Positions 5,967 through 46,133 of a stretch of DNA of 64,000 nt are shown piece after piece. The translations under genes were made by a program, and so were the position numbers. How positions within the stretch are numbered: position 1 is the stretch's first letter; the number at the start of each line of letters is the position of its first letter. This DNA comes from an uncultured delta proteobacterium (GTDB lineage: Bacteria > Desulfobacterota > BSN033 > UBA1163): NCBI GenBank assembly GCA_963827685.1, contig CAWHBU010000006.1, forward strand, positions 160,001 to 224,000. Direction: 5' to 3'. Under the pieces are notes generated by a model, which was not told the origin of the DNA, ran no database searches, and was given only the letters and a program-made list of their open reading frames with translations.

Positions 5967-8372
5967 CTATTTCCATCCATTCGTAACAATCCCTTTTGCC
6001 TCTCTGTAAGGGTATTTTCTTACGAGTTCTGCAACAGGCATTTCCTGATCTCCTTCACGCATGAAGTGAATGAGAACGACGGATGCCCAATAATCATTAT
6101 AGTAATCCGTCCCACTTAGCTGAACTGGAATCCCCTTCTTATTGACGGTATGACACGCTGCGCACGTCACTGGTCCAGGATATTTCCCGTCCGGGCTGAA
6201 CTGTAATGCCTGCTCATGCGATGTCTGATCTACTGTTTCCCTTGTCCCTTCATATCGGACCGGATATAAGCCATGCATAGATTGATGGCATGACTGGCAC
6301 GCAACAAGCCCGTGTGCTTTCGAGTATCGATAGAGTGAGTACTTGCTCGGCTGATCGATAGGGAAGTATCTTCCTCCTTCGCTTTCTACAAATGGGGCCG
6401 CATGGCAGTCGGCGCAATGGGGCACGCCTGGCGAGAACCACCAGTCTTTGCCTGCCGATGCGGATGCATACGTAACGGCTTTCCCCTGTCTTGCGTTCCA
6501 TGGAAGGGGGACTGCTTTCCCATTTTTATCTTTTATGATCCGTGAGAGTGTTACTTCCTCATGCTTTGCGTAATACATATATAAGGGGTTTCCCGAGGCG
6601 TCCACAATAGGGTCAGTAAAAAAGATCCTGAATTTTCCGCTATCTCCACCGGCCAACACCTTGATGATCTCTCCGATAGGTTTATTCCTCAAGGTTTTCC
6701 CTTGCTGTGAAGCAGCATCCTTGAGATCGTCATATCCGTAGAGTGCATGGGTCAGATGGTTGTGACAGTTTGTGCAGTAGAGCCCCCTCAATTGTTTCAC
6801 TGGTTTTCGGTTTTCATCTTTCAGGCTCACTTCGTTAAGGTACCATCTCCCTACTTCGTTGAGGAAAAACGGTGGCTTCACATCAGGATTTGTATGCGCG
6901 TCCCTCCGCAGATAACAACCTCCTCCGGAAGTCCTGAGGTCAGAATCGGAGAACCGAGGATTGCCCTGCTCATCTGTTATCTGGTATGGATTTGTTTTGA
7001 GGTCGTTCATCTTTTCATTCTGCCAGTGAGTAGGATGACATGCCTGGCAACTCTGCGTCCTCCCGGCCTTGTCAGGCATGGGGATAAATCTCGTATGTAC
7101 GGAATGGACCGCTTCTGTAAGCGGTTTCCCCTTCATGGCCACATACCCGGTTGCACCAGGTCTCGGAGACTGCAAATTCCCAGACATATTATCACCATGA
7201 CAATCGGCACAGTATACCGATCCAGCGCCTCCAAGTCTGTTCGATGCTGCATTAGGGTCATAGAACTTTAAGAAGCTTGTCTTGTGGTTTTTGTCATGGA
7301 GCTCAAGGATATTAATCGTTGTTGTGGCAAGTCTCGCAATATATTCGCTTGTGTCAGGATATTTCGTTTTCCAGTAGGTATATTCTTCATCAAAGAGAGA
7401 CAGCCCGCTTTGTCTCGAAAATCTCGCAGCTATCCCCTGTCCGGAATGACAGTAGGAGCAGTTCGAAATATCCACCGGTTCCGTTCCGAAGAATTCTACG
7501 GTCTTCCCATCCATCGTCAACGGTGTTCCCTTTGTATCCCGTAACTGAACCATTGCATACTGATAGGGCTGGAAATCACGATCCGTTATCGTCCGTATGG
7601 TCCCCATTCTCTTGCTGTCATTGAATGCCGTCAAAGGCAACCCCAGCGCATCCCAGAGGTACGATGAGGTGAGCTTGAGAGGAATATCCTTGATTTCCGG
7701 TATCATTGAATCCGTGAAAACGATATTACCTCCTTTTTCTTTGGTGTAGTCCATGTAACCGCCAGCGAGAGGTTTCCCCGATGGGCCTGAATCAATGTTC
7801 ACAGGGATCTCCTTGCCTATGTGGAGCCTTTTTGCTTTATCGGGATTCTCAGGTATTGTGCCTTCCAGATCCCTATAGATGAACAGGTGGTCCCATACAT
7901 AATTTGCCATGTTGTCGTTGGGATTATTCATCGCTCCCTTTCCGCTTACATCTTTCAGCACCTGCCAGTATTTCATCTTGTTTCCTTCACTGTAGCTGTT
8001 GTCTTTTACTGTATAGTGGAGTTTCACTTTCTCATCCGGGGATAACAGGCGGGGTTTTTCGCCACGAGTACCTGATCGGACAGCCTGGGCCTGAATGCTG
8101 TTATAAGGAGGGATAATACAGCAATAAGATATATCGAACCCGACACAGTGCATGCCCAGTTCATAGTTGATGAAAATATTGTAAGGGTTTTTCGGATGAT
8201 AAACAGCCGTCTCTCTTCCCGGGGCATCTGTTTTCATCTTTACAGATTTAAGTAGATCCAGCTTGAATGGCGGGTTACCATCGTAAGCCTTCTCATCCGT
8301 CACTGCTTTTGTTATGAAGATTACGAGCAGTATTGCCGCAAAGAAAAAAAATAGACCCGTGAACCTTTTCAT
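5967..8372 (-). CDS. Large secreted multiheme (7 CxxCH) c-type cytochrome
   Basis: Signal/TM N-terminus MKRFTGLFFFFAAILLVIF (likely start 8372); motifs CSYCH, CADCH, CQACH, CTNCH, CADCH, CQSCH, CAACH; N-terminal ELGMHC..PPYN segment. Confidence 0.85.
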   Translation of the reverse strand: MKRFTGLFFFFAAILLVIFITKAVTDEKAYDGNPPFKLDLLKSVKMKTDAPGRETAVYHPKNPYNIFINYELGMHCVGFDISYCCIIPPYNSIQAQAVRSGTRGEKPRLLSPDEKVKLHYTVKDNSYSEGNKMKYWQVLKDVSGKGAMNNPNDNMANYVWDHLFIYRDLEGTIPENPDKAKRLHIGKEIPVNIDSGPSGKPLAGGYMDYTKEKGGNIVFTDSMIPEIKDIPLKLTSSYLWDALGLPLTAFNDSKRMGTIRTITDRDFQPYQYAMVQLRDTKGTPLTMDGKTVEFFGTEPVDISNCSYCHSGQGIAARFSRQSGLSLFDEEYTYWKTKYPDTSEYIARLATTTINILELHDKNHKTSFLKFYDPNAASNRLGGAGSVYCADCHGDNMSGNLQSPRPGATGYVAMKGKPLTEAVHSVHTRFIPMPDKAGRTQSCQACHPTHWQNEKMNDLKTNPYQITDEQGNPRFSDSDLRTSGGGCYLRRDAHTNPDVKPPFFLNEVGRWYLNEVSLKDENRKPVKQLRGLYCTNCHNHLTHALYGYDDLKDAASQQGKTLRNKPIGEIIKVLAGGDSGKFRIFFTDPIVDASGNPLYMYYAKHEEVTLSRIIKDKNGKAVPLPWNARQGKAVTYASASAGKDWWFSPGVPHCADCHAAPFVESEGGRYFPIDQPSKYSLYRYSKAHGLVACQSCHQSMHGLYPVRYEGTRETVDQTSHEQALQFSPDGKYPGPVTCAACHTVNKKGIPVQLSGTDYYNDYWASVVLIHFMREGDQEMPVAELVRKYPYREAKGIVTNGWK

Positions 8373-8496
8373 ACAATCGCATTTCCTCCCGCCAATAGCG
8401 AAAAATCGACCCGGACTTCTCAAGCCTTAACGCTACTCAAGTTCGCCTGAGGAGTAAATAAGGTGAATACCGTATTTTATGAAGAAATGGAACCTA

Positions 8497-8518
8497 TTTT
8501 GAGACCGACGTCTCAAAA
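8497..8518. promoter_or_regulatory. Perfect 9-bp inverted repeat upstream of the cytochrome gene, possible operator
   Basis: TTTTGAGAC-cgac-GTCTCAAAA. Confidence 0.35.
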
Positions 8519-8544
8519 AGACTGAATTGGTCTAGCCCAAAACA

Positions 8545-8574
8545 AAAAAGCCCTGATCAATAACCAGGGCTTTT
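8545..8574 (-). terminator. Intrinsic terminator downstream of the displaced tmRNA 3' fragment
   Basis: AAAAGCCCTG-atcaataac-CAGGGCTTTT hairpin flanked by A/T runs. Confidence 0.7.
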
Positions 8575-8585
8575 GCAAGCCAAAT

Positions 8586-8613
8586 TGGTGGAGGCGGCGG
8601 GAATCGAACCCGC
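8586..8613 (-). repeat. Attachment site: displaced copy of the last 28 nt of tmRNA
   Basis: TGGTGGAGGCGGCGGGAATCGAACCCGC, identical to 45779-45806. Confidence 0.95.
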
Positions 8614-8668
8614 AACCGCTTTTACAATTATAGGTAAATACAAGGATTTCTTCAATGCGCAAATTGCC

Positions 8669-8686
8669 GGAGAACGTGTGGAGAAC
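8669..8686 (+). repeat. Putative integrase arm-type binding sites (left)
   Basis: GGAGAAC-gtgt-GGAGAAC (11-bp period), same arrangement at 45699-45716. Confidence 0.7.
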
Positions 8687-8706
8687 GCCTTTCTATTGTT
8701 TACCCT

Positions 8707-9851
8707 TCATGTCTTCTTCTCCGGAAAAACAGCCCTGAGGGTATCCACACCGACCCTGGCGTAGCGTTTCGTCATGGTCCTCCTTGTGTGTGCCCGAGGA
8801 ATTCCTGAACGACATCCATCCCCACCCGGTTCACAGCTTCCGTTGCCGATGAATGACGTGTCCCCTGGTACAGAGAGATGTCGATTCCCATCTCAGCCGT
8901 GATTCTATTCCATAGTTTCCGCGCATAGGATTCAGAGTATGGATGCCCGTCTTTTTGAAACACGAATGGCGATCTTATGTGGCGCGGCAGTTTCAGAAGA
9001 GTGTCCCTGACTTCGATATTCAATGGGAGGATTTTGATCCGTTTCGACTTCGTTGTTTCTCGCAGCTCGTTAAGGGAAAAGTGCCTTCGAATGGTGACGC
9101 GATCGTGTTTGAAATCAAGATCTTCCCAGAATAGAGCTCTTGTCTCGGAAGGCCTGACCATTTGGCGAGCTGTAAAAAGTACATAGGCGCGATCCATCGG
9201 ATCTTGAATCAACGATATGATCTGATGTTGCTGATCCAGGTCAATCGTCCTGAAATCGGCCTCTGGAATCTCGAACTCGGGGAACTTGGGCATCGTCGAA
9301 ATATCACCATAGTCCAGGGCATCGGTCATCATCTTGTGAAGTGCCGAGAGGACATTTGATGTGTATTTGGGGGATCCCTGGAGAGATAAATAGAACTCCT
9401 TCACCCTGCGTGTGCCGATGTCACGGATGTCCATTGACCCGAAATGCTCCTGAAAGATTCTCACGAATCGCCGCAGCTCCTTCAGGTAGGATGGAGAAAG
9501 AACTCTCTTCTCGACCTCGGTCTCTCGATCCTTCAGCCACTTCTTCGCGTAGTTTGTGACCTGGAGGGGTCTCAACTTCATGGGCACGTAGCGTGACGGA
9601 TCGAAGGATCCCGCGTCGATCTCGGCCCTGATCTTGGTCAGAATGCGGTTCACTTGCTCATAGGACGAAAACGGAGTCCCGCGGCTATCGCTATAGAGCT
9701 TCATGTGCTTTCCAAGTTCTTTACTATAGAGAACCAAGTAAAATCGCCGCGGGCGAGTCTGATGAATGGGACATAGAAGATCATTCTCAGTTCTGACAAA
9801 TTTTCCCCCGCAGACAGGACATCTCTCTTTAGTATAGATTCCACCCTTCAT
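8707..9851 (-). pseudogene. Tyrosine recombinase/integrase with a C-terminal frameshift removing the catalytic Tyr
   Basis: Motifs RPSE, K, YQGTRHS, LGH; ORF stops at GHTQGGP*. Deleting one CA from the (CA)4 run at 8785-8792 gives GHTRRTMTKRYARVGVDTLRAVFPEKKT* (stop at 8707). Likely start MKGGIYTKERCPVC at 9851. Confidence 0.88.
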
Positions 9852-10053
9852 ACAAAGATCTCCCCTTCCTTTTTGAAGAGGTTTTATTTTATCGCTAAAT
9901 TGGGCGGAAAGCAACTGAATCATAATCTGTTATGCCAACCCTCAATTAGTTTGATTTCTGAAATCTTAATTCTGGGCTTCCTTCAATAGGCCCTGGTCAT
10001 TAATTTCTTCCGAGAACACGATCCTGTAATCGGGGAATGCCCCTTTTAACCAG

Positions 10054-10075
10054 AATTACTGATCATACCCGGTCA
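10054..10075 (-). promoter_or_regulatory. Element-specific motif TGACC-N9-CAGTAATT, copy upstream of the integrase
   Basis: Reverse complement TGACCGGGTATGATCAGTAATT, one mismatch to the copy at 12205-12226. Confidence 0.65.
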
Positions 10076-10176
10076 GTCATTTCTTATTGAGATTTGCTTC
10101 CCAGGCTTAAGAGTATTGAGATATCAGGGTTGATTTGTGAGAAAAGTCGGATTATTCTGATGATAGGACGGATCTT

Positions 10177-11982
10177 ATGAGGAAAAAGAAAAACGAGATA
10201 ACCGAGGATTTTAAAAGAAAGCTGATGGGATTCTTGCCTGAGCTAAGTAGGAATAACCATTACATCATGTTCCTTCATGATTGTATCAGCCGCGAATTTG
10301 ATATCCAACTCGCCCAAATCCAAAGTCATAATGCCGTATCCGACGAAACCAAAGAGCCTGTTGATCTGGTTGGTCATCCTTTCCCATTGTCCAATGAAGA
10401 AATTCAATTCCTGCCAATGTTCATGGATACTCAAGACCCAGCATATAAAAAGGATATGGATGAGTTCATGAGCTGGGTTTCCAAAGGCAGAGACCCGGTG
10501 GCGTTTTTCAAGATGACCAAAGACTACTATGCCCAAAAAAAATCCTGGGTGGTTCAAAAAATTCTGTCTCTTTCAGAGGATTTCGTTAAGGAGTTAATTA
10601 AAATCAGTGAGGAGGAGAATATACCCTTACCCTCCCTTCATAACATGTATATCTTGATGACCGGGATCAACGATTTCTTCCAGTCCCAAGCGAATCACGC
10701 ATTACTGCCGGCTTTTCTTCATTACCCAGTTCCTGTTTCAGTTTCTCCAGACCAAAGGGATGACCGTATAATATCGGTATGGAAACGCCTTTATAACCTC
10801 CTGGTTGAGTGCTATTGGGCCGTGATCGTTGTGGGTATGGTGGATATGCTTAATATTGTTGGGAATTATCAAGAGGAAGGTCTTGAAGAGGCCCGGAACT
10901 ACCTAATGCACTCGGTCATCTATTCAGACTTGGAGAGCCAGGTTCTGCTGATCAAAAACACCGACGATTTGCGTGGCTATGTTCAGAAGGAGTTTTCGGT
11001 CTTTGAAAGCTTTTTCCCGGATTTCGGTGAATTTGTGAGACAGGCTGTAATACCGATCGTTGAGAAAAGAGAAAGGATTTTGAATTACCCGATAACTCCC
11101 CTAATTGACTCCGAAAGTAAAAAAGAATTTTATGACCCCAAAAAGGGAAAAGTTGTAAAATCCCAGACAACTCCTCTCACGGCCTACAAAAATAAACCCC
11201 AGAAAAACGAATCACTTTATAATCCCGAAGCCGAGATGATTGACCATTTAAGAAGACAGGAGCTTAGAAAATTATTTGTCGGGAAGATAAAATCAAAGAC
11301 CAAATCAGTGGACTCCGGTTCTGGTGAAGAAATTATCGAAGGTCAAAGAGATCAGGAAGAATCTTCAAAGAAGGTACCTGTCCTGATGGAATCTACGGTG
11401 ATAGAAGATTTTGAAAAAAAGGTGGGTGTTACTGGATTATTAAAAACCTACCGGCTGACGGGGAATCCAGACAAAATGATTCATTACCTCTTTAAGATTA
11501 TCTCTAATGTTTCCTGGACCATTACCGATAAAATTTACAGCAAAAAATTGAACGATCTTTATGGAGACGGAATGTCTTCTGTAACATTTAGGAGATGGCG
11601 GAGAAAAATAAGAAAAGGGGAAATTCAATTAACTAATCACCCAGATCGGCCAAGTGGCGTCCGGAGTTTTAATGACCTTTTTGAGGGCGAGGTCATAGAA
11701 ATCATGAGAGATATGAAAGACAGGCAGGAACACCACAAGGAAGGATACTTTACCCAAAATGAACTAATTAAGGCCATTCAGGGCGATACGTTCCGATTAG
11801 CTTTAAGAAGAAAGTACGGGATAAGCCTAAAAAAATACGGCAGAACCAAGCTGAGGAATATGCTTAATACATTGATTAATGAGAAAAAGATAACTTTTGA
11901 AAGAGAAAGGGGTGCAACCTATTTCAAAATCAGTGATGGTTTTAAAATCGTTCAAGAAATTGCCAAATTATCCTCCAAATAA
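10177..11982 (+). CDS. Hypothetical 601-aa protein with probable C-terminal HTH/winged-helix domains
   Basis: Long AT-rich ORF divergent from the integrase; GMSSVTFRRWRRK and FTQNELIKAI..GRTKLRNMLNTLINEKKITFER resemble DNA-binding helices. Confidence 0.7.
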   Translation: MRKKKNEITEDFKRKLMGFLPELSRNNHYIMFLHDCISREFDIQLAQIQSHNAVSDETKEPVDLVGHPFPLSNEEIQFLPMFMDTQDPAYKKDMDEFMSWVSKGRDPVAFFKMTKDYYAQKKSWVVQKILSLSEDFVKELIKISEEENIPLPSLHNMYILMTGINDFFQSQANHALLPAFLHYPVPVSVSPDQRDDRIISVWKRLYNLLVECYWAVIVVGMVDMLNIVGNYQEEGLEEARNYLMHSVIYSDLESQVLLIKNTDDLRGYVQKEFSVFESFFPDFGEFVRQAVIPIVEKRERILNYPITPLIDSESKKEFYDPKKGKVVKSQTTPLTAYKNKPQKNESLYNPEAEMIDHLRRQELRKLFVGKIKSKTKSVDSGSGEEIIEGQRDQEESSKKVPVLMESTVIEDFEKKVGVTGLLKTYRLTGNPDKMIHYLFKIISNVSWTITDKIYSKKLNDLYGDGMSSVTFRRWRRKIRKGEIQLTNHPDRPSGVRSFNDLFEGEVIEIMRDMKDRQEHHKEGYFTQNELIKAIQGDTFRLALRRKYGISLKKYGRTKLRNMLNTLINEKKITFERERGATYFKISDGFKIVQEIAKLSSK

Positions 11983-12043
11983 TCTCTGGTTACTCCTTAA
12001 TTCCAACCTCTCAATCTTTCCGTAAAAAGTAATCTCAAAATCA

Positions 12044-12075
12044 TCAAAAAAAGTGACCACCTTTGCCCAGTAATT
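12044..12075 (+). promoter_or_regulatory. Element-specific motif TCAAAAAAAGTGACC-N9-CAGTAATT, copy 1
   Basis: Direct repeat of 12195-12226 with identical spacing. Confidence 0.65.
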
Positions 12076-12194
12076 CTTGGTAGAACCCAGAAACGGTGGT
12101 CGCTATGGAAATTCAGAATCGTGATGAGATCACAGGCAGTGTTTTCTTGTTAATACCTCATTTGTGCTTCAGGACTTTTCCATCTGCCACCACC

Positions 12195-12226
12195 TCAAAA
12201 AAAGTGACCGGGTCTGATCAGTAATT
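12195..12226 (+). promoter_or_regulatory. Element-specific motif TCAAAAAAAGTGACC-N9-CAGTAATT, copy 2
   Basis: Direct repeat of 12044-12075; lies upstream of the 12381 gene cluster. Confidence 0.65.
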
Positions 12227-12380
12227 GTTTTTGAAAGAGCAATTTTTTTAGAAAGGTGGTGATGCCTATGAATGTGTAGATTTCTCTTCGAAGTTTTAAG
12301 GCGGAGGCCGGCCATCCAGGTTCCAGGATGGGCCATTTCTTTAAACCATTAACCAAAATTCACATCAAAGGAGAATTTCT

Positions 12381-13310
12381 ATGAGAAAGAAAGCCGTTTT
12401 AAAGGAAGAGGTAGGGTACTCCGAGGTTGATTTAGCCGAGGTGGTAGACATGGAGATATCGGACAGTGCCGAAGAACGCCAAGAACTTGGTGAACTTGGT
12501 GGAGTTGCTCTGACTCTTGACCCCGTCAAAGGAAAAATCGAAGAAGTCAGGGCAATGGTCACCGAGTATAACCGTTTATTCAACCGTACAGGCAAGGAAC
12601 TGGCTGAACGAGCCATAAAGATAGGATTAGTCCTGATTGAACTCAAATCCATGGTCAAGATGTCAGAAGAAAAGTGGGAAGTCTGGGCCAATGATAATTT
12701 GACTTTCATCGGTAAACGAAATCGCCAGAAGTACATGCTGCTGGCTAAACGTACGGATTGCTATCCCTATATCGACATGGGAGTTGACAGGCTTGAACAC
12801 CTGTGCTCCGTTACAAAGGATATGGATGGGGAGGATCCCATTGGTACCTTCCTGTCGAAATACGGGATCACTGTTGATGAAACCTCTGAATTTGACCTGG
12901 ATGAGTTCAAAGCGAAGGTTGATACTGCACTCAATAATGAGAAGCTCGAAAAACGCAACATTCCAGTGAACTTTGAGTTGGTTGATGCCGTCACCAGGCA
13001 AGGGGTGAGCCTTGATAAAGGGCTCCTCCAAGAGCTTTCCAACATTGCGCAGGCGGGGGGCGATCCTGAGGATCACCTTCGAAGCCTCTCAATGAAGGGG
13101 GGGAGAGATGAAAGTAGGATCATTGGCGAGGTGAAGTTGCAAGACTTCAATACCCTGGCCAATAGAATGATAAAAACCATTGATTACATCTTGAGATCTC
13201 CTGAGCAATTTTCCCGAATTGATACAAGTTCTTTCCTAAGATTAATCCAAAAGCTGATAGATCTTCAGACGGCAGCCAACATAGGCGTCGAACAGGCGAA
13301 GGCTGCTTAA
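12381..13310 (+). CDS. DUF3102-like phage/mobile-element protein
   Basis: AIKIGLVLIELK...WEVWANDNLTFIGKRNRQKYMLLA resembles the DUF3102 pattern (IGxxLxExK...WxxxxF..RxAQxYM); AAGGAG RBS. Confidence 0.6.
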   Translation: MRKKAVLKEEVGYSEVDLAEVVDMEISDSAEERQELGELGGVALTLDPVKGKIEEVRAMVTEYNRLFNRTGKELAERAIKIGLVLIELKSMVKMSEEKWEVWANDNLTFIGKRNRQKYMLLAKRTDCYPYIDMGVDRLEHLCSVTKDMDGEDPIGTFLSKYGITVDETSEFDLDEFKAKVDTALNNEKLEKRNIPVNFELVDAVTRQGVSLDKGLLQELSNIAQAGGDPEDHLRSLSMKGGRDESRIIGEVKLQDFNTLANRMIKTIDYILRSPEQFSRIDTSSFLRLIQKLIDLQTAANIGVEQAKAA

Positions 13311-13382
13311 CCTCTAACCGGCCCCTGTCCCCAATCAGCGTGATGGGGGCCTTATTTATCTTCGCATTAGGAGAAGAAGGTA

Positions 13383-14264
13383 ATGGTCCTTTTTCAGGCA
13401 TCCTTAACCTTGCCAGTTCTGAAACGGTACTATGAATTGTTCGGGGAGCCTCTGAACGTCCTCCTATCCGTTGCCCTGGTCGGATCCGAGACCAAAGGCT
13501 TCCTGCTTGACCACCGGCATATGGTCAATAATATTGTGGCCGACTCCGGCGCCTGGTCGGTGGCCAAAGGGAATTCCAAGCTGACCATCGGGCAGTTGAT
13601 CTCCTACCTTAAGCAATGGGGGCATAAATTCGATTTCTATTTCAACTTCGACACGGACTTCACAGATCACGGGTTCTCCCAAAATTACAGCAACCAAGTA
13701 AAGATGGAGCGGGCAAGGCTTACCCCCGTGCCTGTCATCCACAATTTTTTCAACGACGAGATCGACATTTATGTAGAATCCGGGAAGTATCCATGGCTGG
13801 CATTAGGATCAAGCCAAAGCACCAATCTGGGTGACTTTAGGTACGCTATAGACCGCATCAAATGGAAGGATCCCAGTATTAAGGTCCACTGGTTCGGCGG
13901 GAGCAAGTTTGAATGGCTGGTCAACACTCCTGTGGCATCCTGTGACACGACCTCTTGGGCCAAGACGGGGGCTTTCGGATTGATCAATTTCTGGAATGAT
14001 GAGAAACCAGGATTGAACAAAATGGATCGGATCTATATTGGCGGCACCATGAAACATGATGACAAGCGAATCTACCATTTTGTGACATATCCATATAGAA
14101 AGGCCTTAGAAGCGCATCTGGCCAATACCTTTCGGCTGGAATATGGAGACCTGTGCGGCTACAACGATAAATTTCACATGCAGGTCGTCAATACCCGATT
14201 CTATACCGAGCTAGAAAGGCGAGTCAATGAAGAACGCTTCAGGAGAGGCATCCCTTTGGAATGA
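13383..14264 (+). CDS. TGT-fold, phage DpdA-like guanine transglycosylase (no Zn finger)
   Basis: VADSGAWS, YFNFD, PVPVIH, WLALG, VHWFG, SCDTTSW occur in the order and spacing of phage DpdA/TGT-like proteins. Confidence 0.72.
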   Translation: MVLFQASLTLPVLKRYYELFGEPLNVLLSVALVGSETKGFLLDHRHMVNNIVADSGAWSVAKGNSKLTIGQLISYLKQWGHKFDFYFNFDTDFTDHGFSQNYSNQVKMERARLTPVPVIHNFFNDEIDIYVESGKYPWLALGSSQSTNLGDFRYAIDRIKWKDPSIKVHWFGGSKFEWLVNTPVASCDTTSWAKTGAFGLINFWNDEKPGLNKMDRIYIGGTMKHDDKRIYHFVTYPYRKALEAHLANTFRLEYGDLCGYNDKFHMQVVNTRFYTELERRVNEERFRRGIPLE

Positions 14265-14551
14265 AAAGCGCAGGGGCCTGCGTATTTTGGTAACACCCTC
14301 AAAGATAGAGGAACAATCTCCGGCTGAAGTTGACCCCACTTATGAGAGAACAACGTACGGGGTCTATGAAATCAAAACCCTGAATCTAAACTACCCATGC
14401 CAAAAAGGAAATGAGGTAGAGGAAGGAGGCGATATTATGCGCAGTGGCGAAGGTTAAACCACGTATCCTATATGCGGCGATTGTATGCTTAATAGCCGCT
14501 ATATCAGACCGCTGAGCTATCGGCATTACGGGCAGAAAGGAAAAACACAAC

Positions 14552-15343
14552 ATGGAAGTAACTATTCATCCGAAAGATTTTTCTAACCTTTTAAGATGTT
14601 TATCTTTGCTAAACAACAATAGCAATGATGTAGAAATCCGAGGAGGCATTCTACGTCAACGGTCAAACAACAATGCCTGTATCTTTGAAATGGATCTTAC
14701 TCCTCTGGTTTCAGATTGCGATCTTGTCTTGTCCAATATCAAGAGCAAGTTATCCTTACTCAAGGCCCTATCTAAACAAGAGGTTAAGGTAACCGCTATC
14801 GATAATGACATTTTCTTCTCAGGGGAACGCTCAACTTTTAAGTTTGAAATGCCCCGCATAGATTTCATGGACAACAAGTTCATATCGGGGGAAGAATTTG
14901 CCCGTATCTTCACCTTGAGAGAAGAAGATGTGGTTCTTGAGTATGCCCTCGGTAAAGACATTTTCAGCTTAATGAAAGTAACATCTGGTCAATTTAAAAT
15001 CGCTTCTTTTCAAATATCCTTTGAGGGAAGTACTGCTGCAATTATAGCAACCAATACAAACAAATCGCATTACTGTAAGATAGAGCAGGGAATTCCAATT
15101 AAGAAACCCTTCAAGGGCTTTTCGAACCTAGTGGTAACGCCTTTTCTTATCGACCACGACGGAGATATCCTTCTTAAGATGTATAACTTCCAGGAAACTG
15201 TGTGTGTCAATAAGTTCAAAACCTTAGTTGGGAAAATTACGGTCGTTGTCTGTGGAAGAAGCCAGTTAATAGAAGAATCCGAACCGGATACTTCTGAATC
15301 TAACAGGGAGAACTCAACACATGGGGTGGATCCATCGGATTAG
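14552..15343 (+). CDS. DNA sliding clamp, T4 gp45/PCNA-like
   Basis: 263 aa; by-eye colinearity with T4 gp45: DNDIFFSGERSTFKF vs DGNIKIADARSTIFW, and LMKVTSGQFKIASFQISFEG vs LLRVSRGLQIDTIAITVKEG; acidic tail. Confidence 0.62.
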   Translation: MEVTIHPKDFSNLLRCLSLLNNNSNDVEIRGGILRQRSNNNACIFEMDLTPLVSDCDLVLSNIKSKLSLLKALSKQEVKVTAIDNDIFFSGERSTFKFEMPRIDFMDNKFISGEEFARIFTLREEDVVLEYALGKDIFSLMKVTSGQFKIASFQISFEGSTAAIIATNTNKSHYCKIEQGIPIKKPFKGFSNLVVTPFLIDHDGDILLKMYNFQETVCVNKFKTLVGKITVVVCGRSQLIEESEPDTSESNRENSTHGVDPSD

Positions 15344-15402
15344 TGTTATTAGTCTTCTTCCGATTTAGAACTTAACCTGTACTGTCCTGGACCAATTATA
15401 TG

Positions 15403-15443
15403 AGGGCCAATCTCAATCGTAAACGGGGTTGGCCCTTTCCTTT
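15403..15443 (+). terminator. Hairpin/terminator after the clamp gene
   Basis: AGGGCCAATCTC-loop-GGGGTTGGCCCT followed by TTCCTTTT. Confidence 0.5.
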
Positions 15444-15524
15444 TGGGACACAAACTGGGTTCTGTTCGGTCTTCCTAACCAGAACAAATAATAAATTAAT
15501 AATTTAGATCTAGGAGGTTGTGCA

Positions 15525-15746
15525 ATGAAGAGAAAGAAGTTGACACACGGGATTACTTTCTTTGTTACTGCAGAGACGTACGAAGCGGTCAGGAAAGATG
15601 TGGACGAATGCCAGATTTCAATCTCGGAATTAATGCGTGGATTGATTGAGGATTACCTGTATGGGACTGATTTTTACAGCAAACCGAGTTTGGGTGAAAT
15701 GGAGATTGAAGGAACAAGTATTAAGGAGGCCGAACCTGATGAGTAA
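15525..15746 (+). CDS. Ribbon-helix-helix (CopG-like) protein
   Basis: ITFFVTAETYEAVRK..QISISELMRGLIEDYL beta-alpha-alpha pattern; AGGAGG RBS; upstream of rep. Confidence 0.7.
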   Translation: MKRKKLTHGITFFVTAETYEAVRKDVDECQISISELMRGLIEDYLYGTDFYSKPSLGEMEIEGTSIKEAEPDE

Positions 15747-15784
15747 TGTTGAGATCTTTTTGACTATGAACGGGGGATAGATAG

Positions 15785-16015
15785 ATGACAATAGGACACC
15801 GATTAGGAAGACCAAAACAAAGAAGGTGGAAAGCGAGTCGAATCCGAAGAGAGATAATCGCTAGCATTGAGATGGGGAAAGTTCCAAGCTGGATGAAGGA
15901 TATCCCGTGGTCGAGGATAAGGATGAAAAAACCAAAATTTCAAAAGGCCAGAATTATGCAATGGCCGGAGATGAAATCAAAATATAAGAGCGGGGAGGAT
16001 AGACAAACATGTTGA
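15785..16015 (+). CDS. Small basic hypothetical protein
   Basis: 76-aa ORF with purine-rich RBS, overlapping the start of the Rep-like gene. Confidence 0.4.
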   Translation: MTIGHRLGRPKQRRWKASRIRREIIASIEMGKVPSWMKDIPWSRIRMKKPKFQKARIMQWPEMKSKYKSGEDRQTC

Positions 16016-17274
16016 ATGAGGATCAAAGAGAGTACCTTGATCAGGTGTATACCAGGCTGATACGGACAAATGATCAATATCTACAATCGAGAAATGTTGA
16101 AACTTTTGAAGCTTTAAAACGAGAGTTGGTGAACGCAAACGAAATTTTCGAATCTTTGATTGAACAGGGGCAAGGTGAGGAATGGTTTGAAAAGGGATTG
16201 CAGGTCATAAAGAATACCCTAAAGAATGTAGAGAGCTTCGAGGGAGAGGTTAGAGACTCACATGCAACACCGCAAGAAGTTTTTGCTTATTCTGAACGCG
16301 GGATGAATAAAACAATTATGCCCATCTCAAAAGCTATTAGAGAAATCAAATTCCCCGTTGAATTAGAGATCAATGGCGAGAAGTATTCAACCACCAACTG
16401 TTGGGAAGCTCGCAACTTCATGGCCATGGATGCCCTCTCTTATCTTATTCTCAAGAAATTAGGCTTTCCACGGAAGGCTCAGACCATATTCGACAGCGTA
16501 GAGGATATTGAGAAAAGAGCCGAGCTACTGAAATCAGAAGATATTGTGACAGAACATCAGCTTGAGGAAGATCTGATGTCATTGTTTAAAAATGTGAAAT
16601 ATTGGGTGAAATTTGATGCAGAATTTTTCCGCGAATTCACAGGGAAGCAATTAGAAACGCAACAGATTACGGATCTCCTTACTGAAACCGCCTGCAAATT
16701 TACCCTTTCTTACCCGGTTCTTTTGAGGGACGAAAATAAAATGATAAAGGAGCAGAAGTATAGGGTCTCAGTCCATACGAGCTTCTTCACCTTAGCCTAT
16801 ATAGATTCCCTGGACAAAAACGACAAGACCAAAAAGAGGACCTTCTACGCTTTCTTTAATACGGGCTTAGGTGAATGTTTCGTCAATAACCTCCTCGCCA
16901 AGGGTTATGACATGCTCGACACAAAGAACTTCTATAGTCTTCCTTCTCTGGCACAGATGTTCTTTAGGAAGTTTATCGTACATCATAGTCACTTCGGTCC
17001 GATACATAAATCCCTTGAAGAGATCCGAAAGAGGTTGAATTTGACGATTAAAGGCGATAGTGATTTAATCGCGTATCTCAGAAATAGAGTTTTTGAGCCA
17101 TTGAAAAAGAATGGAGACATATCTGATTATCAAGTAAAGAAGGAACTGAATGACTACTGGATCTATTTTCGACGATCGGACCGAAAGTACCAGATTCATC
17201 AGGAAAATTTGAAGTCATTGGAAGAGAAGAAAACGGGATCGAAAGACTCGAAATTGAAGTCTAGGCAAAGGTGA
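16009..17274 (+). CDS. Putative replication initiator (winged-helix Rep/TrfA-like)
   Basis: C-terminal FYSLPSLAQMFFRKF..KSLEEIRKRLNL..FEPLKKNGDISDY resembles Rep WH2; preceded by an RHH gene and followed by iterons. Confidence 0.6.
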   Translation: MLNEDQREYLDQVYTRLIRTNDQYLQSRNVETFEALKRELVNANEIFESLIEQGQGEEWFEKGLQVIKNTLKNVESFEGEVRDSHATPQEVFAYSERGMNKTIMPISKAIREIKFPVELEINGEKYSTTNCWEARNFMAMDALSYLILKKLGFPRKAQTIFDSVEDIEKRAELLKSEDIVTEHQLEEDLMSLFKNVKYWVKFDAEFFREFTGKQLETQQITDLLTETACKFTLSYPVLLRDENKMIKEQKYRVSVHTSFFTLAYIDSLDKNDKTKKRTFYAFFNTGLGECFVNNLLAKGYDMLDTKNFYSLPSLAQMFFRKFIVHHSHFGPIHKSLEEIRKRLNLTIKGDSDLIAYLRNRVFEPLKKNGDISDYQVKKELNDYWIYFRRSDRKYQIHQENLKSLEEKKTGSKDSKLKSRQR

Positions 17275-17351
17275 CAAAATGGTTAAGGCAGATGGCATGA
17301 AGAAATGCCCGGAGGTGACAGATGAACATTGAGGGAAAAAAGTCGCCAGCG

Positions 17352-17439
17352 GTAACCATTCGGAAGATCCACCTTAAGGATTCGGTGAATCCCAGGTAAG
17401 GATTCGGAGAATCGCAGGTAAGGATTCTTTGAAATGGAC
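17352..17439 (+). repeat. Four 22-bp tandem iteron-like repeats (putative oriV)
   Basis: gtaaccattcggaagatccacc / ttaaggattcggtgaatcccag / gtaaggattcggagaatcgcag / gtaaggattctttgaaatggac. Confidence 0.8.
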
Positions 17440-17474
17440 AATAAGTGGTTGAAATAATTCATCTCTGAAATTCC

Positions 17475-17505
17475 TAAACATATTAAACATTTTAAACATT
17501 TTAAA
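17475..17505 (+). repeat. AT-rich 9-mer repeats (DNA-unwinding-element-like)
   Basis: taaacatat taaacattt taaacattt taaa, 35 bp after the iterons. Confidence 0.65.
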
Positions 17506-18260
17506 GGAAAATCCCTCTCTTTGGATCAGAGAGGTCTTTTCCCACTAAAAACCTTAAGAACAAGAGCAGTAGAAGTAAAAGTCGAAATTCCACTACTATG
17601 GAAAAGAAGGAGTGGGTTTCAATGCTGCTAGAATTTTCCTCGATTAGTAAATTCTTCTGGTAGAGGCATTATTCCCGGAACAAGAAGAAATGTTTTTGTT
17701 GGAAATTCAATGGGGTTTAGTAATTTTCTTCTTCAAAGGAAATTCAACCAGAGTAAAAAGTTTTTCTATTAATTCCTCTCTACCTACTTCTGGAATTACT
17801 TTCAAATAGGATGATATTTCCCCTCTTCCATTAAATTCAACCAGCGCCGGTATCTCTTCATGACATGTACATTGAATTGTAAAGCTAGCTATTCAGTTAG
17901 TAATCCCAGGGTCGCTGTGCCAGAGCTGCTGAACGGGTGTGATTCCGCAAAGAGGCAGGTCAGAGTCCCGAGTCTTCGGTTTGCTTTCTTCAAATAATTC
18001 TGACTTGTGGGTTTCAATGGTCGAAAAGTTTCTGAGACTTTTTTAACTGAACAAATGGAGGTTTTGAGTAAGATGCCATGAATTTCTTTCGGGTCGATCA
18101 TCGTCCCGTGCTAGCGTCGATTACCCTTCATTCTAGTCCTTCTTTAGAGATTTTTGTCTAAGAGATCTTTCAATAACCCTGGAACAAATACTCAAAGAAA
18201 ATAGAAACATTGAATTCAGGTTTCCTAAAGTCATGTCACTTTCAGAGGGGAGAAATTAGT

Positions 18261-19313
18261 ATGGGTGAACTTCATTATTTCTGCGCAACTGCTAAAAAAA
18301 ATAACCTACCTCAGAATTCAGCTCATAATATTTTAATTAACGTACCGCACGATGCCAGGAATGATTCTCAAATCAATAAGTCCGGGGAGTTGTTTAAGCA
18401 CCTTGGCAAGAGATTTTTGATTCAAGATTCAGGTGGTTTTACCGTTTTGCAGGAGGCGAACAAAGGGAAGCGAGTCACCTCCAATCCTAATCTTCCTCTT
18501 AAAATATCAAAAGATGTCATTAATATAGCACCGGAGCATATCATCGAGGCAGCGGTGAAGCTAAAACCTGATATCATGGTTGCTTTGGATTACCCGATCG
18601 CGAAGATAAAAGACCGGGAGGAGCAGCGACGGGAATTTGCTAAAAAGCTTCCATACAACGTCAAATGGAGTATTGAAACTTCAAAACTCAGGGATAAACT
18701 CTGTCCCCGGATTCCACTAATTATTCCGGTGCAAACTTATACGGTAACGGATTTTTACCAGTTTATAAAAAGAATCCATGGAATAGATTTTGAGGGATTC
18801 AGCCTCCCCATAAGGAACCTCGGTCTTTTTGAGATCGCCAAATTTCTTTTGGCATTCCGCAAGACAGGTATAACAAGGGTCCATCTTTTGGGGACATCCT
18901 ATTATCCTATTCTATGTCTCGCAGCATATTTTTCGAATAATTATTTTCAGTGGGTCTCATTTGACTCAAGCACCTGGGCAATAACAGCCAAAAACAACAT
19001 TTATTTAAATCCATTAGATTTGACGCGTATAAAGATCCTCGATGATATCCCCAAGCACAAAGAGAAACTCAGAAGGTCTTGTAGCTGTCCACTCTGTGGG
19101 AAGATACCTCTTGCCCAGTATAAGCACATCCCTTATAAGGGAAGGTCCTATTTCTTGGGGGTACATAATTTCTATGCCACCGAGAAGGTGACTCGGTCTC
19201 TACATGAGCACGTAACCAATTTGGTGGAGTTAGAAGCTTTTTCGAAATCCAATTCCCGTAGGAAAGGCCAAGTTGAAGAGCTTATGAACTTCTTACGGAC
19301 TGCTGATCTTTAA
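18261..19313 (+). CDS. tRNA-guanine transglycosylase-fold protein with Zn site (TGT/arcTGT/DpdA superfamily)
   Basis: IQDSGGF, VALDYP, PVQ, VHLLG, SFDSSTW, CSCPLC...HN; all three TGT active-site Asp positions present. Likely start MGELHYF at 18261. Confidence 0.82.
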   Translation: MGELHYFCATAKKNNLPQNSAHNILINVPHDARNDSQINKSGELFKHLGKRFLIQDSGGFTVLQEANKGKRVTSNPNLPLKISKDVINIAPEHIIEAAVKLKPDIMVALDYPIAKIKDREEQRREFAKKLPYNVKWSIETSKLRDKLCPRIPLIIPVQTYTVTDFYQFIKRIHGIDFEGFSLPIRNLGLFEIAKFLLAFRKTGITRVHLLGTSYYPILCLAAYFSNNYFQWVSFDSSTWAITAKNNIYLNPLDLTRIKILDDIPKHKEKLRRSCSCPLCGKIPLAQYKHIPYKGRSYFLGVHNFYATEKVTRSLHEHVTNLVELEAFSKSNSRRKGQVEELMNFLRTADL

Positions 19314-19801
19314 AGGAATTCCATTACAACTGATAAGCCACGAAGCACCGTGAAGACAGCTGGTTGATTCAATAACCAATCTATTTTAAAGAAACCCATA
19401 TCTAAAAAGGTCAATCTTAATCACGTGATCAAAGGTGATTACCTGTTATTACCAAATTTTTTCTATACCCTCTTTTTGGCAAAAAAGGCTGCCTTTGCAG
19501 TTATCTTTTGGTCATTCATTTCCATCTCCCAGACTGGCCATCTATCCAGTTAACATTGCCCGAGTCCCCCGCCAAATTCGTCGCCCGGTGCGCCCGCGTA
19601 ATGAGGACAGACTGGATCAGAAATTCTTCGCCTTTTACTTGGTTGGAATGATTCGGATATTTCTGGAGGAAATTGGTGGTTCACGGTAAATACCACCCTT
19701 TTCTTTTTGCTGAAGAATTAAACCATCACTCTCTAACGGAAACACCCATCAGATGCGATCAAGGCTCCTGGGAGTGTTGAAGATCCGAAATGGAGAGGGA
19801 T

Positions 19802-19965
19802 ATTTGCATCCATGATGAAATTCTACTGGAAGTCCCTACTGAAGCAACGGATGAAGTGGCTCTCCTTTTCTGACGGGAAGCAATGGAGGAGGATGGCAGG
19901 ACGATGTTGAAGATTGCCCTGTCGAGGCTCAGGTGGTTATTGTGGGTAGTTGGGCGGAGAAGTGA
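19802..19965 (+). pseudogene. Decayed C-terminus of a family A DNA polymerase
   Basis: Manual translation ICIHDEILLEVPTEATDEVALL(stop)REAMEEDGRTMLK(frameshift)CPVEAQVVIVGSWAEK*, i.e. PolA motif C (HDE) and the typical PVE..SWAE end. Confidence 0.72.
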
Positions 19966-20220
19966 TGCTGGGAGATTGCATATAGGATATCAAATAGAAA
20001 CTTTTTAGAGTCGGTTGGAACCAGCGAATAGATAGCAGCTGAACCTTCGTGAAAAGGGAGTTCTCCTTCATCCTTTTTGGTTAATGCTTTCACCCGCTGC
20101 GAAATTGCCAACCTTTGGAAATAAGGTCTACTTCTTTTTGTGGAACAAGGAAGAGAACTATTATCTTGGATAGCAGTATTAGCCATTCTTAAATAGAAAA
20201 TTCTTCCACCTCCTTTCAGT

Positions 20221-21018
20221 TTAGTGAGCGGTCCAGCCTCCATCGACCAGAAGGATATGACCCGTCACCAGATTGGACGCCTCTGAGGCCAGATAGATCA
20301 CTGCCCCAGTGACATCTTCGGGTTTTCCAACTCTCCCTAAAGGAATATTTCCCAGCACGTACTCACGAAAACCCTCTTTCTCAAACATAGGCTTCGTGAA
20401 AGGAGTCTCAATAAAGGTAGGGGCAATCGCATTGACGTTGATGTTGTACTGGGCCCACTCGATGGCCAGGAGTTTTGTCAGTTGATTCACACCTCCCTTG
20501 CTCGAGCAGTAAGCTGCTCTTTGGGGGATGGCGATCGTACCTGTTTGCGATGAGACATTGATGATCTTTCCCTTCTTCTGCTGGATCATCACCTTTCCCA
20601 CTGCTTGAGCACAGAAGAAGAGGGCTTTGAGATTCGTATCGACGACCCTGTCCCAAGCTTCCTCGGTAACATCAACCGCCCATTGGGTGATGTTCACCCC
20701 TGCGTTGTTTACAAGAATGTCGATATGGCGGAAGGTTTTCACGGATTGCTCTACCATGATATGAATCTCAGGAATCTTTGTGACATCCACCCGCTGGATC
20801 AGAACTCTCCGGCCGAGTTTCTCTATCTCCGCTCCCACTCTTTCCAACTCTGATTCCGTCCGACTGCAGACAACCATATCGGCCCCGTATTTGGCCAACG
20901 CCAACGCGATGTGGTATCCCATTCCTCTGCCAGCGCCCGTAACCATGGCAACCTTCCCTGTGAGATCGAATTCAGAAAAAGGAACCTTCTCCATAAGCTC
21001 TCCACAGTTCTTTATCAT
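20221..21018 (-). CDS. SDR-family NAD(P)-dependent oxidoreductase (gluconate 5-DH/KduD-like)
   Basis: TGAGRGMG, NNAG, YCSSK, VDGGW. Confidence 0.9.
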   Translation of the reverse strand: MIKNCGELMEKVPFSEFDLTGKVAMVTGAGRGMGYHIALALAKYGADMVVCSRTESELERVGAEIEKLGRRVLIQRVDVTKIPEIHIMVEQSVKTFRHIDILVNNAGVNITQWAVDVTEEAWDRVVDTNLKALFFCAQAVGKVMIQQKKGKIINVSSQTGTIAIPQRAAYCSSKGGVNQLTKLLAIEWAQYNINVNAIAPTFIETPFTKPMFEKEGFREYVLGNIPLGRVGKPEDVTGAVIYLASEASNLVTGHILLVDGGWTAH

Positions 21019-22853: not shown

Positions 22854-22868
22854 GGATGTTCCTCCTTT

Positions 22869-45778: not shown

Positions 45779-46133
45779 TGGTGGAGGCGGCGGGAATCGA
45801 ACCCGCGTCCGAGAACCTTCCGGCAGAGCATCTACATACATAGCCTATGTTTTAGATTCGCCCTTCCAAACTCCCACAGGCAGGATTCCAGAAGAACTAG
45901 CTTATGAAGATTCGCTCCTCACCCTATAAGCGTCGGGGAGAAACTATCCTGTTTTTCTGACATCCCTTTCCACCCCACAGGAAGGAATGGGAGGGACGCT
46001 AGCTGCGCTTAGGCAGCCAGGGCATAATCGTAGTTGTTTGCGATTATGTTTAACCCCATTTGTTTTACGAGCCAATGGGACCTCGGCATGCAGCCCTGAC
46101 GTCAACGATCCCCGTCGAACCCTTTTCGCCCCC
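45779..46133 (-). ncRNA. ssrA: tmRNA, tag peptide (A)ANNYDYALAA
   Basis: 5' GGGGGCG pairs with 3' CGCCUCC-ACCA with a G3-U pair; T-loop GGTTCGATTCC; tag ORF GCAAACAACTACGATTATGCCCTGGCTGCCTAA at 46009-46041; next to smpB. Confidence 0.97.

Follow-up and report, generated by a model that had tools for sequence, protein, structure and literature searches.

The stretch of DNA analysed here (the window, 64,000 nt) is part of contig CAWHBU010000006.1 (positions 160,001 to 224,000) of GCA_963827685.1, the assembly of an uncultured delta proteobacterium. The host is a Syntrophales-like member of the Desulfobacterota and a sediment anaerobe. Its contig carries an integrative element with, in order, genes for a tyrosine integrase, p601, p309, tgtS293, p263, a ribbon-helix-helix (RHH) protein, p421 and a second protein of the tRNA-guanine transglycosylase (TGT) family (Table 1). 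The subject of this work is tgtS293, which encodes a zinc-less protein with similarity to the DNA-modifying DpdA1 proteins of phages. We conclude that tgtS293 is an unannotated, divergent DpdA-type transglycosylase, and that it does not represent a new kind of system.

An original prediction, made from the sequence alone, had described a 293-aa open reading frame (ORF) at this position with five motifs and no CxCxxC zinc site. The motifs ADSGAWS (D54), YFNFD (D90), PVPVIH (H120), VHWFG (H169) and SCDTTSW (D188) were all recovered by a motif script, and a scan of the protein found neither CxCxxC nor CxxC. There are two cysteines in total; among 85 family sequences, 64% retain C187 and 9% retain C258. 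A word-indexed search of a 90%-cluster database returned 193 related proteins at E ≤ 1e-3 among 884 candidates. Among the 120 matches listed, identity ranges from 54 to 97%, almost always over 99-100% of the length, and every name given is "hypothetical protein". With HMMER run exhaustively, the count was 867 representative clusters at E ≤ 1e-3, of which 224 reach ≤ 1e-10 and 71 reach ≤ 1e-30; nearly all have 280-310 aa. Because of these 193 proteins and 867 clusters we regard tgtS293 as a real gene and no chance ORF, and its start codon as right because the N-terminus aligns with homologues from residue 1.

Homology to phage DpdA1, active site and predicted fold

Comparison with the PHROGs database placed tgtS293 in phrog_887, "queuine tRNA-ribosyltransferase", at E 9.8e-25 over residues 25-210; the DpdA proteins of phages 9g, PSTCR4 and BA3 score 2e-98 (9g) to 4.6e-81 against the same family. 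BLASTP of tgtS293 with 9g DpdA gave 26% identity over 192 residues (E 6e-11). For profile-profile alignment with hhalign, we used a family alignment of 85 diverse members with 24-71% identity to tgtS293. Against seven DpdA1 proteins of the Queuovirinae it gave a probability of 99.8% and E 1.5e-29 over 245 columns, joining residues 27-292 of the query to 43-305 of 9g. Since the alignment spans 27-292, the C-terminal third of tgtS293 is homologous to DpdA1 and is no novel appendage. The same profile gave a probability of 0.19% with the Tgt of the host, and one of 90.6% with the second TGT of the island, but over 52 columns only, around VH.FG...CD(S/T)(S/T)SW.

A tblastn search with tgtS293 of 50,697 phage records found 126 that match, none with at least 80% query cover and all below 60% identity. 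Among the 70 listed (the 30 best and a spread of 40), all are siphophage-type dpdA loci of 9g-like, CAjan-like, PaMx25-like, Rhizobium RHEph-like or Vibrio phages, mostly siphophage genomes of about 53-64 kb, and the names given are queuine/queuosine tRNA-ribosyltransferase or "7-deazaguanosine inserting enzyme". The PLSDB plasmids yielded no tblastn match. In IMG/VR viral contigs there were 81 pattern matches and none was confirmed, a result obtained with two peptide patterns tuned to the close clade and therefore no evidence of absence from viruses. A quick IQ-TREE phylogeny was built from 94 rows (the 85 family members, the seven phage DpdA1 proteins and two TGT outgroups), midpoint-rooted and with SH-aLRT support only; bDpdA, DpdA2, DpdA3 and DpdA4 were left out, and the branches to the two TGT rows are very long. 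In this tree tgtS293 lies inside a 12-row clade with a support of 96. We file it with the DpdA enzymes, as a divergent protein that stands closest to DpdA1 but outside the Queuovirinae clade.

Three columns of the family alignment are invariant, D54, D90 and D188. Near-invariant positions include G56, P117, V118, H120, G142, H169 and G172, among others, with H120 kept in 94% and H169 in 98% of the sequences. In the alignment with DpdA1, residues D54, D90, H120, H169 and D188 pair with 9g D72, D114, H141, H196 and D215, all of which are invariant across the seven phage proteins. The histidine of KVH169WFG in tgtS293 and that of KVH196GFG in 9g are aligned by hhalign. The conserved DpdA1 histidine that a passage of Hutinet (2019, PMC6884629) places "at position 196" and describes as absent from DpdA2 is, in our reading of that passage, 9g H196.

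The only relevant match of the family profile among PDB sequences was the Salmonella "DNA-guanine transglycosylase" 7ui4_A (E 0.02), with DSG paired to GDCGAF, PVPVIH to PFGVAH, VH.FG to VHLLG and SCDSS to SIDSTT. Chain residues D115, D150, H201 and D276 correspond to Asp95, Asp130, His181 and Asp256 of the published account at a constant offset of +20, presumably a tag, and D54, H120 and D188 of tgtS293 fall on D115, H201 and D276, that is on Asp95, His181 and Asp256. As described in that account of the active site, Asp95 is the acid/base, Asp130 and His181 contact the base edge and Asp256 is the nucleophile, and Asp95Ala or Asp256Ala abolishes exchange on DNA (Gedara et al., 2023, PMC10164549). 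The proposal that the three Asp residues form the TGT catalytic set thus agrees with their being the sole invariants of the family, with their pairing to invariant Asp residues of DpdA1, and with the position of D54 and D188 on the acid/base and nucleophile of 7ui4.

An AlphaFold2 model of tgtS293, built from a 30-sequence alignment, had a pLDDT of 91.0 and a pTM of 0.88. Strands and helices alternate to residue 190 and are followed by a small three-stranded sheet and C-terminal helices. Foldseek found 175 PDB matches at E ≤ 1e-3, with the Zymomonas mobilis TGT first (E 1e-6, probability 1.00) and archaeal ArcTGT next. VIA-align gave Z 17.1 to ArcTGT 1iq8 (rmsd 3.8, 261 aligned residues), 16.9 to Thermotoga TGT 2ash and 16.4 to human TGT 7nq4, and its matches to TGT structures span model residues 1-291. 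The model, Foldseek and VIA-align therefore agree on the TGT-type (beta/alpha)8 TIM barrel that the original prediction called for, and tgtS293 is predicted to be such a barrel. The catalytic residues of the Zymomonas enzyme, which we take to be D102, D156 and D280, are represented in the PDB titles among the fold matches by D102N and D156N mutants; D280 is named in none. Among the predicted viral structures of BFVD, the best matches were phage proteins at E 1.5e-10 and weaker (37 at E ≤ 1e-3), many of them named queuine/queuosine tRNA-ribosyltransferase; proteins of Vibrio phage nt-1 and Cellulophaga phage phiST stand lower.

Phage DpdA1 (9g, CAjan, PaMx25; PHROG 887) is thus the known protein closest to tgtS293. 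Homology is full-length, the sizes are similar (300-317 aa compared with 293), and the motif set DSGA(F/W)S, P.P..H, KVH.FG and SCD(S/T)(S/T)SW is shared together with the invariant Asp and His residues. Short forms without zinc had been called typical of phage DNA-modifying enzymes, which is borne out in the three that were checked: the DpdA proteins of 9g, PSTCR4 and BA3, at 308-317 aa, also lack CxCxxC. Both kinds of gene have a replication-type neighbourhood in which the next large gene may be a clamp. The differences lie in the sequence, with 22-27% identity to tgtS293, in the carrier, which is a virulent siphophage for DpdA1 and an integrated, integrase-bearing Desulfobacterota element for tgtS293, and in the upstream genes: 9g, PSTCR4 and BA3 have a folE-queD-queC block, whereas tgtS293 has no such block and is preceded by a conserved gene for a 309-aa helical protein.

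Bacterial DpdA (Salmonella Montevideo Dpd system, 7ui4) is likewise a DNA-guanine transglycosylase of TGT fold borne on a genomic island, but has 436 residues with DpdA-specific insertions. It lies with dpdC-K and requires the ParB-like ATPase DpdB (DGQQR motif), none of which was matched among the proteins of the tgtS293 island that were compared with the PADLOC Dpd models; according to the published account, it is inactive without DpdB and ATP (PMC10164549). Bacterial Tgt and ArcTGT share with tgtS293 the barrel (Z 16-17) and the logic of the catalytic Asp residues. They differ in having the zinc site CxCxxC...H, a PF01702/NCBIfam match and C-terminal RNA-binding domains.

Boundaries and gene content of the element

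Table 1. Features of the tgtS293 locus, in window positions.
Feature	Position	Strand	Evidence or remark
att-like 28-nt exact copy of the tmRNA gene 3' end	8586..8613	-	158 nt from integrase gene
Tyrosine integrase	8772..9923	-	Pfam Phage_integrase E 5e-14; phrog_1 integrase E 4.1e-31
p601, 601 aa, no function assigned	10177..11982	+	No Pfam, PHROG or NCBIfam family; weak PADLOC JetA, E 1.5e-4
p309, 309-aa all-alpha protein upstream of tgtS293	12381..13310	+	Weak DUF3102 likeness; model pLDDT 78.9
tgtS293, zinc-less TGT-fold protein, DpdA1-like	13383..14264	+	ATG start, 293 aa
tgtS293 catalytic-candidate codons	D54 13542-13544; D90 13650-13652; H120 13740-13742; H169 13887-13889; D188 13944-13946	+	Arithmetic from ORF start
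Terminator-like hairpin, 4 nt past the tgtS293 stop codon	14268..14283	+	Pattern match only
p263, 263 aa, candidate PCNA/gp45-like sliding clamp	14552..15343	+	Atlas lead and gene position
RHH protein (NikA-like/CopG-like), 73 aa	15525..15746	+	Below cut-off in Pfam: NikA-like (E 9.1e-5), RHH_1 (E 0.0057); NCBIfam: ORF56 copy-control (E 5.9e-4)
p421, 421 aa, no function assigned, recurs in related elements	16009..17274	+	No family or PDB match
Second TGT-family gene, 367 aa, ArcTGT-catalytic-domain-like	18210..19313	+	Pfam TGT E 5.5e-15
Intact tmRNA gene; last 28 nt (45779-45806) are the second repeat copy	45779..46133	-	ARAGORN

The mobile part that carries tgtS293 measures about 11.5 kb and extends from about 8.6 to 20.16 kb of the window, as judged by the copy of the tmRNA gene end on the left and by the point on the right at which homology begins to a same-genus genome without tgtS293 (20163-24042; 86.6% identity, 3890 nt). 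The 28-mer of the tmRNA end occurs exactly twice in the window, and two matches were seen in 0 of 100 shuffles. An Rfam tmRNA partial match at 8586-8689 scored 21.6 bits, below the gathering threshold of 47 (E 1.8e-5). The two repeats, which are direct and both on the minus strand, bracket 37 kb. Because part of this interval (20163-24042) is shared with the genome that lacks tgtS293, the unit may be either a small element with the repeat as an attP-derived arm at a secondary site, or a composite 37-kb island. At the right end, the regions 8380-8800 and 19300-20250 share two 10-mers only, about chance level, and a 25-nt tmRNA-end pattern is absent from all 25 loci examined.

The genes that flank the element are ordinary chromosomal ones, encoding RND efflux, a multihaem cytochrome, aldehyde:ferredoxin oxidoreductase and transporters. 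On the minus strand, a single RND pump gene seems to have been cut in two by a frameshift or by misassembly, as two overlapping AcrB-family ORFs match Pfam positions 1-534 (ORF 2534-4315) and 540-1020 (ORF 1198-2700). GC content per 2-kb bin is 0.398-0.467 at 10-20 kb and 0.390-0.508 for the window beyond 20 kb; as these ranges overlap, low GC is not used as evidence for an island. In four DNA runs of a single study, the island is covered by short contig pieces of low depth; no contig joins across it, and these data are uninformative on excision or an empty site. Terminator-like sites in the region number 12, compared with 9.7 ± 3.2 in shuffles and thus not above chance, and promoter-like counts do not exceed shuffles either. 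A 35-nt sequence, TCAAAAAAAGTGACC...CAGTAATT.TT, occurs twice on the plus strand (12044-12078 and 12195-12229), 80% identical and 151 nt apart, within the 400 nt that separate p601 from p309; the pair could represent operator or iteron sites of the module. For p601 no PDB relative was found.

The second TGT carries the motifs DSGGF, VHLLG and FDSSTW and an intact CSCPLC zinc motif. It matched NCBIfam tgt_general below cut-off (E 2.3e-10), ArcTGT 1iq8 in the PDB at E 2.2e-7 with CxCxxC aligned, and the PADLOC model "TGT" weakly (E 0.0051), and it has no C-terminal PUA-type domains. A tblastn search for phage relatives found none. Among 401 genomes sampled from the phylum it was seen in the host genome only, and in one of the 12 related loci described below (L015), as fragments. 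The presence of two different transglycosylases within one 11.5-kb element is unusual.

The partner p309, related loci and the candidate clamp

Residues 1-45 of p309 are predicted to be disordered. The N-terminus is variable and of low complexity. The conserved core reads W..WA..NLPFxGKRNRQK...R.DCH...LGVDRLE.LC. At E ≤ 1e-3 there are 66 homologues, none with a functional name, and neither a Walker nor a DGQQR motif is visible in their alignment. The model consists of helices throughout, with pLDDT above 90 over most of residues 50-230. Likeness to DUF3102 was found by Pfam (E 0.015, below cut-off) and in a protein-language-model atlas (lead 0.94); papers that mention DUF3102 are, by their titles and the openings of their abstracts, on other subjects. 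Foldseek of the model against the PDB gave 0 matches at E ≤ 1e-3. VIA-align against 48,161 chains gave at best Z 6.5, to the clamp-loader delta lid (residues 176-240), and Z 5.0-5.2 to DNA-binding domains of ParB, KorB and VirB (residues 76-195). All of these values are within the noise that the tool states for helical proteins, so no fold is assigned to p309. Prediction of a p309-tgtS293 complex returned a score of 0.02 and a mark of 0.32, "no answer", which is evidence neither way on binding.

Two family patterns, run over 185,579 species genomes, led to 12 confirmed related loci, all in metagenome-assembled genomes (MAGs) labelled Syntrophales, Syntrophaceae or "delta proteobacterium" except for one labelled "bacterium". 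By tblastn, a p309 homologue lies directly upstream of the tgtS gene in 12 of 12, with which ORF clustering agrees. A p421 homologue was found downstream of the module in six of the 12, a p601 homologue in one (L009) and a p263 homologue in none. Seven entries of the tgtS and p309 match lists, and eight of the p309 and p263 lists, agree in the length of the longest contig, which hints at common contigs. Pfam searches of 26 neighbouring ORFs of these loci identified integrases, HTH_17, family-A DNA polymerase, Prim-Pol with DnaB, D5_N/DUF5906 primase-helicases and YbjN-like domains. tRNA genes (SeC, Glu, Gln+Glu, Ser or Met) lie a few kb upstream of the module in seven of the 12, and at four of these seven loci they adjoin an integrase-cluster gene; in L007 (5191-5288) and L010 (4370-4467) the gene is tRNA-SeC, with the integrase immediately beside it. 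As the loci adjoin tRNA-SeC, -Glu, -Gln/Glu, -Ser and -Met, the element family uses many tRNA-type attachment sites.

Other details of these loci are as follows. In L008, a 1541-aa ORF directly downstream of the DpdA-like gene (3925-8550) combines an N-terminal region of F1 type, F1 being a BLAST cluster of genes located after tgtS in related loci, with a polymerase domain of family A at residues 1269-1540 (Pfam DNA_pol_A, E 1e-45), and L015 has a stand-alone 580-aa PolA where L008 has the fused polymerase. In L011 (9079-10881) and L015 (8893-10992), which belong to one MAG, the p309 homologue and the DpdA-like gene are each split into two or three frames, and the G138 copy of the DpdA-like gene has an internal TAG. 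These interrupted copies represent either decaying genes or long-read assembly errors. Across the 401 phylum genomes, the tgtS293 family is present in four, the host included, and in 0 of 11 genomes of the same taxonomic family as the host, one of them of the same genus. Its distribution in the phylum is sporadic.

The original prediction had also placed tgtS293 directly upstream of a sliding clamp gene. The downstream gene is p263, which begins 288 nt away and past the terminator-like hairpin, and this part of the prediction is not confirmed. Its identification as a clamp lacks sequence or profile support: no match was found in Pfam, PHROGs, NCBIfam or PADLOC, a family profile of 34 sequences retrieved no clamp from the PDB, 0 of these 34 members match clamp Pfam families, and BLASTP against the 9g clamp gave E 0.04. 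Alignment of the family with three Queuovirinae clamps by hhalign reached a probability of 0.3%, no better than unrelated controls at 0.1-0.2%. What favours a clamp is the protein-language-model atlas, with a viral "PCNA N-terminal domain" cluster at 0.96 (207/256 shared features) and gp45-type clamp clusters at 0.94-0.95, and the position of the gene. In all six phages examined with enough flank (9g, PSTCR4, BA3, CAjan, PaMx25 and RHEph06) dpdA is followed by a replicative clamp gene (phrog_947), directly or past one or two small ORFs, and in 9g, PSTCR4 and BA3, where the flank is long enough, DNA polymerase comes next after the clamp. The position of p263 matches this order. We consider a sliding clamp plausible but unproven, and a lead only. 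The genes that follow tgtS in the related loci (cluster F1, including YbjN-like and PolA-fused ones) were also considered as counterparts of p263 and rejected, with hhalign at 0.5%, the same as controls.

Donor base, proposed mechanism and alternatives

The host genome, 94.5% complete, encodes Tgt (E 5.8e-162), QueC (4.9e-80), a PTPS/QueD-family protein (1.6e-38) and QueF (9.4e-28), so that preQ0 and preQ1 should be available; the Tgt gene is adjoined by a 342-aa ORF. An earlier suggestion that tgtS293 could leave abasic sites for want of a donor base thereby loses its premise. We think it probable, with some reserve, that tgtS293 acts as a DpdA-type DNA guanine transglycosylase and uses preQ0 or preQ1 made by the host. 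The original view of a compact, phage-DpdA-like transglycosylase acting on DNA is supported to this extent, with action on DNA probable from homology and context. Phage DpdA is reported to insert preQ0 into DNA, and some phages carry dpdA alone (Hutinet, 2019, PMC6884629). Since the island carries no genes of deazaguanine synthesis, tgtS293 would be such a "singleton" DpdA, depending on host QueC, QueD and QueE (and perhaps QueF). Like the singletons of that report it comes without folE, queD, queE and queC and would rely on the host pathway; those described there are in phage genomes (Mycobacterium, gamma-proteobacteria; PMC6884629), whereas tgtS293 is on an integrative element.

If its homology to TGT and DpdA is a guide, tgtS293 would flip a target guanine in double-stranded DNA into the pocket of its barrel. 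D188 would then attack C1' to give an intermediate in which enzyme and DNA are covalently joined, D54 being the general acid/base, and the guanine would be swapped for a host-made 7-deazaguanine, most likely preQ0 and possibly preQ1. DNA of the element modified in this way, and probably that of the host too, would resist restriction. The strict adjacency of the two genes leads us to propose p309 as a DNA-side accessory of the transglycosylase, probably a DNA-binding subunit that would stand in place of the ParB-like ATPase DpdB but has no NTPase motif.

Several results weigh against this reading. Standard libraries miss tgtS293: its sole Pfam row at E ≤ 1 was DUF5634 (E 0.061), with no match to PF01702 (TGT); NCBIfam, including TIGR00430 and TIGR00432, gave nothing at E ≤ 1; PADLOC gave no match; and a phmmer comparison of the single sequence with PDB sequences found no relevant relative. 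A PF01702 search of the whole host genome picked up the host Tgt and the second TGT of the island but missed tgtS293, and the DpdA4 family model PF20314 (DUF6610) was not matched in the Pfam search. The match of the family profile to 7ui4 is marginal, and in a gapped, low-confidence stretch of that alignment Asp130 lands on D84, six residues ahead of the invariant D90, for which the profile-profile alignment to phage DpdA1 would seem the better test. In the 94-row tree none of the 85 family rows falls within the clade of the seven phage DpdA1 proteins (SH-aLRT 99), and the unity of the tgtS293 family is supported at 31 only.

The gene context adds to these points. Among the island ORFs scanned with Pfam, PHROGs, NCBIfam and PADLOC there were no deazaguanine synthesis genes (folE, queD, queC or queE). 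The PADLOC Dpd models matched none of tgtS293, p309, p263, p421, the RHH protein or the integrase, and no DpdB-like ATPase was found. No phage structural genes were recognised among the island genes (8772-19313), and the island therefore cannot be presented as a virus with DNA to protect. In the three other positive genomes among the 401, which carry more distant family members, p309 was upstream of tgtS in none (tblastn and family HMM, 0.7-1.5 kb of flank) and the ORFs found there belong to no Pfam family, so p309 is a feature of the clade of tgtS293 and not of the whole family. Three of the 16 copies of the tgtS gene seen (L011, L015 and G138) are interrupted. The preference for DNA over RNA as substrate, and base exchange itself, are suggested by homology and context only. 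Cui et al. (2023, PMC10516641) report a lack of activity for some of the DpdA proteins they cloned and a DpdA specificity that varied between preQ0, preQ1 and CDG, which means that the inserted base cannot be named from sequence.

Two other activities are each given a slim chance. As a DNA glycosylase only, tgtS293 would use the same Asp chemistry to take out guanine, or a modified guanine in the DNA of an invader, but let water resolve the intermediate. The abasic sites left behind would serve the element in defence or as a weapon of interference. This is chemically possible, as the steps are common up to the covalent intermediate; it would also fit the lack of donor-base genes on the island, and defence glycosylases that attack 7-deazaguanine DNA do exist. 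Those enzymes, Dag1 and Dag2, are however described as like classical DNA glycosylases, not TGT barrels (bioRxiv 10.1101/2025.10.29.685425), and no TGT-fold glycosylase was found in the literature searched. The donor bases are made by the host, tgtS293 retains D90 and H120, with which exchange enzymes read the base, and tgtS293 is wholly homologous to enzymes shown to insert preQ0. The other activity, for which we see a similarly slim chance, is insertion of a base other than a 7-deazaguanine, or action on another nucleic acid, for instance on nothing but the element's single-stranded replication intermediates; tgtS293 would then be a relative of DpdA whose specificity has changed. It shares as little as 22-27% identity with characterised DpdA1, the specificity of DpdA is described as drifting (PMC10516641), and the partner protein together with the second TGT paralogue hints at a non-standard system. 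Against this, all residues with which DpdA and TGT read a guanine-like base are kept in tgtS293, and no gene of an alternative-base pathway was seen in the island.

Modification of tRNA or other RNA, by which the element would retune host translation, is unlikely, somewhat more so than either of these two. In its favour, tgtS293 has the fold and the catalytic residues of a tRNA-guanine transglycosylase, and the phage relatives are labelled "queuine tRNA-ribosyltransferase" in databases. That name, however, is historical, and 9g DpdA has been reported to act on DNA (PMC6884629). Furthermore, tgtS293 has neither the zinc subdomain nor the C-terminal domains of ArcTGT (293 aa compared with 577 for 1iq8), the host has its own Tgt, and the hhalign probability of 0.19% with that Tgt contrasts with 99.8% for the DNA-modifying DpdA1. 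That tgtS293 is a catalytically dead or decaying passenger gene is very unlikely despite the interrupted copies. Its own copy is intact, none of the 85 aligned sequences departs from the three catalytic Asp residues, and conservation among the 120 listed close members is at 54-97% identity. Of the interrupted copies, two belong to a single MAG, where the neighbour gene is split as well, as assembly errors would give.

The preferred reading thus remains that of a DpdA-type DNA guanine transglycosylase supplied by its host. To our knowledge, DpdA is the only known route of 7-deazaguanines into DNA, and has so far been described in phages (DpdA1-4) and in bacterial Dpd restriction-modification islands. 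The value of the present finding lies in the size of an unannotated family, its non-phage carrier and its partner gene. The tgtS293 family is large and unnamed, and standard libraries miss it despite a homology to DpdA1 that extends over the full protein. As seen in tgtS293 and the 12 related loci, it rides on tRNA- or tmRNA-associated integrative elements with their own replication genes. The partner p309 offers a handle on what, besides DpdB, lets a TGT barrel work on duplex DNA, and could explain DpdA proteins that have no DpdB.

If tgtS293 is active, DNA deazaguanylation would be commoner among bacterial mobile elements than annotation suggests, and studies of restriction evasion, nanopore base-calling and methylome surveys of sediment anaerobes would have to allow for it. 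A bolder view, which we hold to be doubtful though better placed than the alternatives above, is that p309 and tgtS293 form a new module of two components by which integrative, self-replicating elements of non-viral nature deazaguanylate DNA. In this module p309, helical and without an NTPase motif, would replace DpdB as the factor that delivers the transglycosylase to DNA, and in this island the second TGT would write another mark, or DNA and tRNA would both be marked. If this were true, 7-deazaguanine modification of DNA would extend beyond phages and Dpd islands to a large class of mobile elements, so far unannotated, in the chromosomes of anaerobic bacteria from sediments.

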